Assembly: GCA_964016885.1 (NCBI GenBank)
Contig: OZ024763.1
Span: 2,170,001-2,234,000 of the forward strand
Reading direction: 5' to 3'
DNA: 64,000 bases
Source of the DNA: Eledone cirrhosa
Lineage: Eukaryota
Shown here one piece after another: positions 154 to 62,642 of the stretch. The notes below the pieces were generated by a model, which saw nothing but the letters and a program-made list of their open reading frames with translations, made no database searches and had not been told where the DNA came from. Position numbers and translations under genes: made by a program. Position 1 is the first letter of the stretch, and each line of letters starts with the position of its first letter.

Positions 154-156
<3 letters not shown>

Positions 157-357
157 CCAGTAAGACCCCGACAGCTGAGCTCAAGCCGTTTCGACGGCTA
201 ATTGGTTTCGACGGCTAATTGGTCCAGAATTAGCCGTCGAAACGGCTTGAGCTCAGCTGTCGGGGTCTTACTGGTTCCTATTACCCACTCTACTACCTCA
301 AGTATTGAGTACTTTGGTGCGTTATGGTCCACCTGGTTCCTTACCACTTTTCCTTCG

Positions 358-359
<2 letters not shown>
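154..359 (+). mobile_element. Family B fold-back element (Penelope-like pLTR derivative) in (TA)n; palindrome 154-277 made of two 3' hammerhead halves plus an 80 bp tail
   Basis: Inverted repeat centred on GACGGCTAATT..AATTAGCCGTC, followed by GAAA-CGGCT-TGAGCTC-AGCTG-TC-GGGGT. Homologous to 875-1062, 42983-43176 and 43345-43473. (TA)n on both sides. Confidence 0.75.
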
Positions 360-874: not shown

Positions 875-1060
875 GGAAAAAGTATGACCCCGACGGCAGA
901 GCTCAAACCGTTGCGACGGCTATTTCTGGAAATAGCCGTCGAAACGGCTTCAGCTCTGCCGTCGGGGTCATACTTTTTTCCTATTTCCCACTCTACTACC
1001 CTAAGTATTGAGTACTCTCATGCGTTATGGTCCATCTGGTTCCTTACCACAATTCCTTTG

Positions 1061-1062
<2 letters not shown>
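875..1062 (+). mobile_element. Family B fold-back element, diverged copy (palindrome 875-981)
   Basis: GACGGCTATTTC-TG-GAAATAGCCGTC centre, then GAAA-CGGC..GCCG-TC-GGGGT. Same tail as 154-359. Confidence 0.75.
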
Positions 1063-11039: not shown

Positions 11040-12490
11040 ATTTTCTAAATTTTTGGTTGGCTTGTTTGTTTGTTTGTTTTTCTGTTTGGTTGTTTTTAAG
11101 AAATAGTTGAAAATATTTTATTTTGCGGATAAATTTTATGGCCAAAACTAACTGTCAGGAAACCCCAGAGATAGGGTCCCATCTTCCTCGGGATGGGAAC
11201 CTATCTCTGGGGTTTCCTGACAAATTTAGAAAATAAAATTTTTGGTTTGTTTGTTTGTTTGTTTGTTTTTCTGTTTGGTTGTTTTTAAGAAATAGTTGAA
11301 AATATTTTATTTTGCGGATAAATTTTATGGCCAAAACTAACTGTCAGGAAACCCCAGAGATAGGGTCCCATCTTCCTCGGGATGGGAACCTATCTCTGGG
11401 GTTTCCTGACAAATTTAGGAAATAAAAATTTTGGTTTGTTTGTTTGTTTGTTTGTTTTTCTGTTTGGTTGTTTTTAAGAAATAGTTGAAAATATTTTATT
11501 TTGCGGATAAATTTTATGGCCAAAACTAACTGTCAGGAAACCCCAGAGATAGGGTCCCATCTTCCTCGGGATGGGAACCTATCTCTGGGGTTTCCTGACA
11601 AATTTAGAAAATAAAATTTTTGGTTTGTTTGTTTTTCTGTTTGGTTGTTTTTAAGAAATAGTTGAAAATATTTTATTTTGCGGATAAATTTTATGGCCAA
11701 AACTAACTGTCAGGAAACCCCAGAGATAGGGTCCCATCTTCCTCGGGATGGGAACCTATCTCTGGGGTTTCCTGACAAATTTAGAAAATAAAATTTTTGG
11801 TTTGTTTGTTTGTTTGTTTGTTTGTTTTTCTGTTTGGTTGTTTTTAAGAAATAGTTGAAAATATTTTATTTTGCGGATAAATTTTATGGCCAAAACTAAC
11901 TGTCAGGAAACCCCAGAGATAGGGTCCCATCTTCCTCGGGATGGGAACCTATCTCTGGGGTTTCCTGACAAATTTAGAAAATAAAATTTTTGGTTTGTTT
12001 GTTTTTCTGTTTGGTTGTTTTTAAGAAATAGTTGAAAATATTTTATTTTGCGGATAAATGTTATGGCCAAAACTAACTGTCAGGAAACCCCAGAGATAGG
12101 GTCCCATCTTCCTCGGGATGGGAACCTATCTCTGGGGTTTCCTGACAAATTTAGAAAATAAAATTTTTGGTTGGTTTGTTTGTTTGTTTGTTTGTTTTTC
12201 TGTTTGGTTGTTTTTAAGAAATAGTTGAAAATATTTTATTTTGTGGATAAATGTTATGGCCAAAACTAACTGTCAGGAAACCCCAGAGATAGGGTCCCAT
12301 CTTCCTCGGGATGGGAACCTATCTCTGGGGTTTCCTGACAAATTTAGAAAATAAAATTTTTGGTTTGTTTGTTTTTCTGTTTGGTTGTTTTTAAGAAATA
12401 GTTGAAAATATTTTATTTTGCGGATAAATTTTATGGCCAAAACTAACTGTCAGGAAACCCCAGAGATAGGCTCCCATCCCGAGGAAGATG
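11040..12490. repeat. 177-193 bp tandem array, 8 units, 7 of which carry a 70 nt hairpin
   Basis: TGTCAGG starts at 11153, 11342, 11531, 11708, 11901, 12078, 12271 and 12448. Unit length varies with (GTTT)n. Confidence 0.95.
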
Positions 12491-19974: not shown

Positions 19975-20040
19975 TATTTCATTATATATATTTCGGGGAT
20001 ATCATATTAACAATATGTTATGCCTTCCTCAGACAAAATA
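19975..20040 (-). ncRNA. Minimal hammerhead ribozyme (family C)
   Basis: Reverse complement of 20202-20267 with one stem II change. Confidence 0.8.
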
Positions 20041-20700: not shown

Positions 20701-20780
20701 CTCACCTGAGGAAGGGCTTATGCCCGAAACGTCGTCCCCCACCAACACCCCACTCTCCAGAGCGTGAAATTAATAAACAT
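20701..20780 (+). ncRNA. Hammerhead core of Penelope pLTR type followed by AATAAA
   Basis: CTGAGGA-A-GGGC TTAT GCCC-GAAA-C-GTC-G-TC (20706-20736). Stem I is not paired. AATAAA at 20772. Confidence 0.65.
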
Positions 20781-32521: not shown

Positions 32522-32773
32522 ACAATGATATTAAATAAATAGAAACTATATTTATAAAACCATATTTATTCTATTATATATATTTCAAGGATACCCTTGA
32601 AATATATATAATAGAATAAATATGGTTTTATAAATATAACTATATTTATAAAACCATATTTATTCTTTATTTAATATCATTGTATATTATACTCCAGAAA
32701 TCTGTTGAGTGCTCTGAATCAGTTATAAACATTTATATTTGTTGAATTACCAACAAATTGAATATCCCTTCTG

Positions 32774-33405: not shown

Positions 33406-33456
33406 ATAGTCTAACAAAGTTCTTTCGTTGCACATTTGCAACATCATCAGTGGTAC
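33406..33456 (-). ncRNA. Hammerhead core (stems I and III atypical)
   Basis: CTGATGA-T-GTTGCA AATG TGCAAC-GAAA. Second copy at 56164-56216. Confidence 0.55.
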
Positions 33457-42641: not shown

Positions 42642-42982
42642 ATGTATAGATATGTGTGTGTGTGTGTATGTATAGATATGTGTGTGTGTGTGTGTATGTA
42701 TAGATATGTGTATGTGTGTGTGTATATAGTTGTGTGTGCATTTAAGTGTGTGGGTGTATGTATATATAAATATTTGCATATATATGTTTGTGCATATATA
42801 TATATAGTAATAATAAATGTGAAGATTAAAATCCGAAGAAGGCTTGATAAGGATTATATAAAGATATATATATAAAATATATATATAAACCAGTTTCAGA
42901 AGATCCCGTTAAGGGTGAAAGCAGCAATTTTTGTACTAGTTGCATTTCTAAAAATAACGTCAATATATATATATATATATAT

Positions 42983-43176
42983 AACGAAGGAAATGTGGTA
43001 AGGAACCAGGTGGACCATAACGCACCAAAGTACTCAATACTTAGGGTAGTAGAGTGGGTAATAGGAACGAGTAGGACCCCGACGGCTGAGCTCAAGCCGT
43101 TTCGACGGCTAATTCTGTCCAGAATTAGCCGTCGAAACGGCTTGAGCTCAGCCGTCGGGGTCCTACTCGTTCCTAT
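42983..43176 (-). mobile_element. Family B fold-back element (palindrome 43061-43176)
   Basis: Near-perfect inverted repeat, GAAA-CGGCT-TGAGCTC-AGCCG-TC-GGGGT on both strands. Confidence 0.8.
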
Positions 43177-43289: not shown

Positions 43290-43472
43290 CCACCGAAACA
43301 GCTATAAAGGGCTTCCTGATGATTTCTCCCGAATGAAACAGATCACCCAACGACTATTTCTGGACGTCCAGAAATAGCCGTCGGGGTTAAACATTTACCC
43401 ACTCTACTACCCTAATTATTGAGTACTCTGGTGCGTTATGGTCCATCTGGTTCCTTACCACACCTCCTTCGT

Positions 43473-56314: not shown

Positions 56315-56385
56315 GTTAAGTATTTCTGTAGAAAAGGTAAAGGAAAGAAGAGTGTTCTATGTATAGTACAGAGCTATTTAATTAT

Positions 56386-56537
56386 ATAATAAACAACACA
56401 ATATAATTATTCCATCACCCAAGGTTTCACGAAGTTAGACGATTCTAACAGAAACGTCTGATATCGCTCATCTGGTAGAATCTTCTAACTTCGCTAAACC
56501 TTAGGTAATGGAATAATTATAATGTGTTGTTTATTAC
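56386..56537. repeat. Imperfect inverted repeat with arms of about 60 bp, between TA tracts
   Basis: AATAAACAACACA..GATTCTA / TAGAATC..TGTGTTGTTTATT. Confidence 0.7.
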
Positions 56538-56560
56538 ATAAATATATATATATATATATA

Positions 56561-56830
56561 TGGAGGCACATGGCTTAGTGGTTAGAGCATTGGGCTTGCA
56601 ATCGAAAGGTTGTGAGTTCAATTCTCAGACCGGGTGATGTGTTGTTTCCTTGAGCAAGACACTTTATTTCACATTGCTCCAGTTTACTCAGCTGTAGAAA
56701 AGCACCCAGCACTCACTGTAAATGAGGTTGGTGTTAGGAAGGGCATCCAGCTGTAGAAATCAAGCCAGAATCAGTTCCCGTCCCACCCTTGCAAGCAGGG
56801 AAAAGTGGACGGAAAATGATGATGATGATA
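56561..56830 (+). mobile_element. SINE S1 with internal deletion
   Basis: tRNA-like head and RTE tail. Lacks the segment between GCTGTAGAAA and AGCACCCAGC. Confidence 0.85.
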
Positions 56831-62589: not shown

Positions 62590-62642
62590 ATTTTATTATA
62601 CATATTTCAGAGGTACAACAGTACGTCCTCATCAGACAAAAT
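62590..62642 (-). ncRNA. Minimal hammerhead (family D)
   Basis: ATTTTGT-CTGATGA-GGACGTAC TGTT GTACCTCT-GAAA-T-ATGT-A-TA-ATAAAAT. Confidence 0.82.

Follow-up and report, generated by a model that had tools for sequence, protein, structure and literature searches.

Head-to-head stubs of a Penelope-like retroelement in Eledone cirrhosa stop in a narrow zone inside a predicted hammerhead ribozyme

Short palindromes of one family in the genome of E. cirrhosa, here called family B, are head-to-head stubs of a Penelope-like retroelement (PLE), and on balance they are probably cDNAs that ran off the capped 5' end of an RNA at about position -40 and were joined there. About three quarters or more of the family B halves stop in one 15-base zone inside the predicted ribozyme of the element. 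Positions are numbered from the hammerhead cleavage nucleotide (0), negative numbers lying 5' of the cut. An earlier note on this DNA had placed the pivot in hammerhead stem II and had proposed that cDNA self-primes or switches template on that stem. The recurrent, non-uniform breakpoints that it expected are borne out by the arm-end counts reported here; self-priming or template switching on stem II is not supported by the position of the centre, the strength of the helices or the behaviour of families A and C.

Palindromes of the window

The window, that is the whole 64,000-nucleotide stretch analysed, consists of AT-microsatellite-rich DNA from a host genome of 3.0 Gb. An ungapped palindrome scan found head-to-head pairs at 877-978, at 43061-43176 (57-bp arms) and at 32547-32638 (44-bp arms), confirming that the palindromes reported earlier at these places are real; the one reported at 154-277 is 86% self-inverted, has a central 16-nt duplication and does not pass the scan.

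Each family B insertion in the window lies within (TA)n and carries a tail of about 80 nt on one side only. The first is composed of a tail-less inverted arm on the minus strand with its end at -33 (154..203), a junction insert made of a 16-nt duplicate of the left arm end and two G (204..221), a tail-bearing plus-strand arm from -39 (222..278), and the plus-strand tail of about 80 nt (279..358), followed by (TA)n. The tail-bearing arm contains the stem II 3' strand, GAAA, stem III, the cleavage triplet (259-261) and the stem I 3' strand. The second insertion is a head-to-head pair of a second subfamily (875..981), in which the tail-less arm ends at about -37/-38 and the tail-bearing arm at -34 with 1-2 nt of overlap; its tail follows on the plus strand (982..1061). 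The third is a minus-strand element with its tail at 42982..43063 and its head-to-head pair at 43064..43173; the tail-bearing arm ends at -36, the tail-less arm at -39, and one G (43117) is common to both. In the fourth, with its plus-strand tail at 43392..43472, the family B palindrome at 43345..43387 is centred on 43365/43366 with a 90% self-inverted match, and both arms end at -39 and are without the GAAA-stem III segment. This last copy had been described as a non-folded relative that keeps a stem I 5' arm, a description that does not hold: it is itself a palindrome, and in its ACCC one reads the 3' strand of stem I in reverse complement.

The four family B copies thus pivot at -33 to -39, inside the 3' strand of stem II, and the 5' box and the 5' strand of stem I are missing in all eight of their arms. 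The earlier reading of the arms as stem II 3' strand, GAAA, stem III, cleavage triplet and stem I 3' strand without the 5' box was correct, as was the idea that these pieces are halves of the end of a hammerhead-bearing retroelement.

Other inverted and ribozyme-like sequences were observed in the same DNA. A 360-bp family A palindrome at 481-840 holds two complete canonical hammerhead cores head to head with a one-sided tail. At least five more families of canonical type I hammerhead cores are present, several of them head to head at (TA)n; further canonical cores were located at 20032, 20210 and 62249 for family C, and at 62635 and 62708, at 33450 and 56208, and at 20706, 43316 and 53234 for other families. 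A 70-bp hairpin occurs seven times in a tandem array with a period of about 180-190 bp (11153-12340), and a 160-bp imperfect inverted repeat (56382-56541) is adjoined by a weak match to a tRNA model at 56571-56628. In an Rfam scan of the window, microRNA models matched through microsatellites made up most of the 150 matches listed out of 211, and no hammerhead was among those listed.

The parent element and its predicted ribozyme

Family B is the 3' end of an endonuclease-bearing PLE, with a reverse transcriptase (RT) plus a GIY-YIG domain at the C terminus. Long parents were retrieved through two CTGANGA matches with longer upstream sequence. Two of the loci (L281 and L282) contain, in order and in broken frames, what we take to be RT motifs and then a GIY-YIG-type segment; a cysteine-rich linker is present in their ORF, and both have inverted copies of 1.1-1.2 kb. 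Atlas look-alikes of the parent ORF carry RVT_1 in 14-44% of members and GIY-YIG in 31%, at 0.92-0.96; a Pfam scan of three parent fragments returned no match. The pLTR occurs in partial tandems, the 3' UTR, ribozyme and tail running into the 5' region of the ORF in nine of the 28 copies shown, and four of the 28 copies with the 5' part of the ORF also start at -38/-39.

Three other kinds of element were considered. A PLE of the Naiad/Chlamys type was excluded by the endonuclease, which is C-terminal and not N-terminal to the RT. A non-LTR retrozyme, which would show non-coding units in head-to-tail tandem with complete ribozymes at their bounds, was excluded by the dispersed head-to-head stubs with half ribozymes. 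A terminal hairpin of the Helitron or parvovirus type was rejected on account of the RT ORF of the parent.

Pattern searches of the genome matched 38,122 tails and 54,367 cores. Arms reaching -36 numbered 46,603, by a pattern that also admits the parental base, and arms reaching -40 numbered 29,695; box-region matches numbered 2,602, a figure obtained with a different word and only roughly comparable with the tail and core counts. The patterns read backwards (core, tail, box, CTGANGA and arm ends) gave 0 matches, so that the forward matches exceed chance. An inverted partner was found nearby in about 78 of 98 tail-anchored copies, taken from the first 100 tail matches on C1; pairs with two tails (L205) and with none (L253) also occur.

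Intact parents carry a predicted type I hammerhead fold with a long stem II. Folding of one such parent (L236:1296-1425) gave a three-way junction with a z-score of -2.47, and 2 of 200 shuffles were as good. Around the predicted junction lie the core boxes, the 3-8 pair, G10.1-C11.1, A15.1-U16.1 and the cleavage triplet. The box is placed at -85..-79, the 5' strand of stem II at -75..-67, a distal helix at -58..-52 with -43..-37, the 3' strand of stem II at -33..-25 and GAAA at -22..-19. The parental box is usually UUGANAA: among the first 100 of 2,602 boxes, read by eye, 77 had U3-A8, 19 C3-A8, three U3-G8 and one C3-G8, and position 7 was free. In 20 hand-picked copies of 69, 91.5% of helix cells were paired and covariation was no higher than in shuffled copies (157 of 500 as good), and Rfam returned no hammerhead match on the intact parent.

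The earlier note had looked for an intact ACCCC-CTGANGA copy and had held that its idea would fail if no family B copy had a CUGANGA box upstream of the hairpin. An intact copy was not found in that form. CTGANGA within 4-34 nt of a core gave 49 matches genome-wide, and 30 of these 49, on inspection, were flank or junction sequence; one of the first 100 boxes was canonical, which comes close to the refuting case, but the box is present as the U3-A8 variant.

Three further observations concern the ribozyme. The C3-A8 mismatched boxes, about one fifth of those listed, are likely to be inactive, and that subfamily was still amplified. A few tail arms (copies 5, 8, 20, 66 and 71) end within 2 nt of the predicted cut and may be self-cleaved templates or reflect G-run microhomology. 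A divergent relative of family B, near position 1831 of L018 on the minus strand, has telomere-like GGGTTA repeats in place of stem III in one of its arms.

The stop zone and its probable origin

For the measurement of arm ends, 98 distinct copies on C1 were read and 166 arms were extended without gaps against ten natural parents; gapped extension was not used, as it ran on into the partner arm. The arm anchor required reach to -13, which excludes shorter arms both from the 166 and from the 57 arms of the C24 survey. The endpoint counts also leave out the matches of a junction-spanning query, which are biased to their own junction, and loci L031-L090 and L211-L280.

On C1, 123 of the 166 arms ended within -47..-33, with the mode at -40 (22 arms), although the ungapped extension over-calls some ends at -44..-47 as alignment artefacts from the partner arm. 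A further 27 arms were shorter, three ended between -48 and -108, and 13 were long. Second peaks lie at -34 and -44, so that the ends are spread over 15 nt. In unselected C24 DNA (664 kb, window included) 48 of 57 ends fell in the zone, eight were shorter and one reached -52; a 'G' family anchor was dropped from this survey because it cross-matched family C. The zone is common to all six haplotype groups, and its mode coincides with an initiator-like A in the region of the 3' strand of stem II. Two public runs, which may derive from the assembly's own sample, yielded contigs that show a 30- and a 48-fold step in depth at the zone, and their joints land on -40/-39; an assembly artefact was rejected, since the step is present in the run contigs as well.

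These ends do not lie at the centre of the natural hairpin, where the earlier note had put them: the parental apex is at about -44 to -51, and the pivots of the window copies are at -33 to -39. If cDNA primed itself on stem II, the centre should lie at the apex with about 38 nt between the cores; close core pairs, among the first 100 core matches, were 12-32 nt apart. Likewise, only 16 of the 166 arms, and none of the four window copies, pass -48, as a fold-back on the natural stem II would require. Any inversion makes a central hairpin, and to name that hairpin stem II therefore requires an intact parent; the central hairpin of the family B palindromes was created by the inversion and is not the natural stem II.

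Nor is the stem II pivot a general property of hammerheads; it is where the limit of family B happens to fall, since most arms of families A and C retain the ribozyme in full. In the unselected C24 DNA the whole canonical ribozyme was present in 16 of 20 arms of family A and in 26 of 33 arms of family C, and ends in stem II were seen in three A and five C arms, two of the five belonging to the window copy at 32547. Family C is another hammerhead-bearing family, with a canonical box. Its head-to-head pair at 32547..32638 does pivot in the stem II 3' strand, as had been noted, but this is a minority outcome (five of the 33 C arms). Several of the longest arms stop at family-specific motifs about 65-70 nt (A) or 80-89 nt (C) upstream of the box. 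The limit motif is not preceded by a G in C (0 of 7 arms), nor is a G evident in A; support for the cap reading is confined to family B.

In that family position -41 is T or C in the natural parents but G in 5,781 arms genome-wide; the first 100 of the other 23,914 arms had 71 T, 26 C and three A at this position. Arms stopping one base earlier had G in 14 of the first 100 of 8,420 (by eye), and the local share of G was 8 of 27 non-parental contexts (about 30%) versus 14% at the neighbouring position. Inspection by eye of 42 G arms from 40 loci indicated that the partner arm or a local repeat might have supplied the G in 21 and could not have done so in the other 21; these other arms comprise 11 tail-bearing and 10 tail-less ones, one of which directly follows (TA)n. 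In L1 and SVA an untemplated 5' G has been explained by reverse transcription of the cap (PMC3287187). The excess of G in family B is about 2- to 4-fold depending on the control, and it therefore supports, and does not prove, a capped start. The A at -40 stands in what we take to be an initiator-like context, with a presumed TATA-like word 31 nt upstream; this word doubles as the 5' strand of stem II and is altered in one subfamily. The promoter of the D. virilis element is described as TATA-less and internal in the available part of PMC2377424. Overall, the stop zone of family B is likely to mark the start of a transcript rather than a fold-back hairpin.

At four loci (L143, L204, L290 and L321) a run of at least 10 A or T was observed at the junction directly beside a -40 end, which suggests untemplated addition of A; such addition could mimic the parental T's at -41..-43.

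The mechanism that we favour would run as follows. The initiator-like A at -40 would be the first transcribed base; as it lies inside stem II, the 5' copy of the ribozyme in the RNA would lack the box. RT would start internally at both ends of the tail, on both nicked strands, as may be supposed from a lizard element in vitro (part of PMC11167929), and two cDNAs would probably be primed from both target strands. Each would reach the end of the template after about 60 or 140 nt and in some cases gain untemplated A's or, opposite the cap, a C. Trimming of the two 3' ends would then be followed by their joining through 0-4 nt of microhomology or short inserts, and the minority of long arms would be due to template jumps or to copying of the 3' pLTR.

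Two cDNAs are suggested by the independent ending of the arms in a narrow zone and by the usual presence of the tail of about 80 nt on one arm. The tail arm was longer in 22 of 68 single-tail pairs, the tail-less arm in 21, and 25 were equal; at L085 the tail-less arm is longer by about 90 nt. At L223, L228 and L230 ends at -39/-40 are joined in direct orientation to the 5' region of the ORF, as expected if run-off cDNA jumps template. Three of five direct-orientation joins (L223, L228 and L237) converge on almost one point, about 300 nt inside the ORF, where the sequence has some resemblance to the -40 end and may be an acceptor for template jumps.

Against two cDNAs stands the recurrent haplotype that both arms share in 73 of 77 pairs (22% if random), since self-copying also predicts it; it would follow if one cDNA ran off the 5' end of the RNA, snapped back and was copied into a hairpin, with later central deletions making the arms unequal. 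The mirroring of private haplotypes on both arms of three pairs, the same segment missing from both arms at 43345-43387, and the spacing of only 1-3 nt in several G-ended pairs agree with such an origin, and self-priming has been proposed for rotifer elements (part of PMC3846280). However, a tail-bearing cDNA cannot yield a longer tail-less arm, yet such arms are as common as the reverse and include that at L085; the unexplained G is found on tail-bearing and tail-less arms alike; the end of the tail-less arm is precise; and two different recurrent haplotypes are joined in four of the 77 pairs, the arms of L180 differing at several sites and L205 being another such two-haplotype pair. We regard a snap-back as rather unlikely. 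The arm lengths, the haplotypes and the tail variants agree with two priming events, for the most part on a single RNA or source.

The 3' strand of the predicted distal helix (-43..-37) falls in the stop zone, and RT might stall on entering that helix, the stalled cDNAs being joined or folding back there, which would be the idea of the earlier note in a corrected register; the ends in stem II of three of the A and five of the C arms point the same way. This we consider improbable. No helix is weaker than the distal one (-4.7 kcal/mol), and before reaching it RT has already passed three stronger helices (-6.7, -10.8 and -11.3 kcal/mol); across these the loss of arms per nucleotide, 0.005-0.013, is 5- to 12-fold below the 0.059 within the zone; other subfamilies share the zone although their distal helix is weak or rearranged; in A and C most arms extend beyond the complete ribozyme; and the extra G would be left unexplained.

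An inherited hotspot, from a few master palindromes amplified as units (as a non-autonomous family or as recopied hairpin transcripts), is very unlikely: 35 of 40 scored matches were identical over 86 nt across one junction, but the 86-nt query selects its own junction, tail-anchored junctions are highly varied, and every haplotype group has long parents of autonomous type with the same diagnostic bases. Equally hard to credit is an RNA 5' end made at -40 by processing, through a nuclease or an alternative ribozyme cut, which would give the same sharp limit; the predicted hammerhead cut is at 0, not -40, and an uncapped cut end would not add G.

Relation to known elements and meaning of the stop zone

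Both the insertion pattern and the class of element are known, and what is new is the well-counted stop zone and a testable mechanism. In L1 twin priming the second primer anneals internally and the arms have no sequence overlap, unlike family B, in which both arms copy the same short segment. The resemblance to L1 lies in two primings on related RNA giving an inversion, and in the extra G at complete 5' ends (part of PMC3287187).

Insertions of inverted pLTRs with a one-sided tail and junction palindromes have been described for endonuclease-bearing PLEs, and self-priming on the antisense template has been proposed for them (available parts of PMC3846280, PMC8557442 and PMC2377424). Family B shares with these the head-to-head 5'-truncated copies, the optional tail at one end, the junction palindromes, the microsatellite targets and the pLTR-ORF tandems. 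It differs in its tail of about 80 nt, against 30-40 nt in theirs, and in being inserted mostly as stubs that share one 5' limit; neither such a limit nor an extra G is reported in the passages available on the published elements. Among openly accessible papers, a literature search met no description of Penelope-like stubs with a cap G or a fixed 5' limit, and the accessible portions of PMC3088659, PMC13282606 and 10.64898/2026.07.22.740005 contain nothing on either.

For PAc, the Poseidon element of Anolis, the accessible part of PMC11167929 describes cutting and extension of both strands in vitro, with two internal RT starts bounding the tail. As in PAc, family B has two 3' ends separated by the tail, a tail that runs into the 5' region of the ORF, and an AT-rich target; in PAc, unlike family B, the ORF begins in stem II, and neither inverted junctions nor cDNA running off the RNA 5' end come up in that part of the paper. 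The U3-A8 hammerhead variant is known from Schistosoma PLEs (PMC4209133, in part), in which a type I hammerhead in the pLTR carries this core swap. The stem II of family B differs from theirs in being long and two-part, its stem III has 5-6 pairs and a palindromic loop, and about one fifth of its boxes have C3-A8. How tandem and inverted PLE ends form is named as an open question in the available parts of PMC8557442 and PMC11167929.

We suggest tentatively, and with less confidence than the joining of run-off cDNAs itself, that PLEs make a strong-stop-like cDNA, in which the tail-primed copy of the capped 5' end must jump to the 3' pLTR and failed jumps are left as stubs. If so, tens of thousands of failed jumps would be fossilised in this genome, mapping the transcription start to one base, and a start inside the ribozyme would leave only the 3' copy able to cut. 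Hammerhead screens based on CUGANGA alone miss family B. Its natural products number about 38,000; their stop zone is resolved to the base, both arms bear subfamily markers, and there is a candidate signature of the cap. The proposed mechanism would explain one route by which short palindromes come to fill an animal genome.
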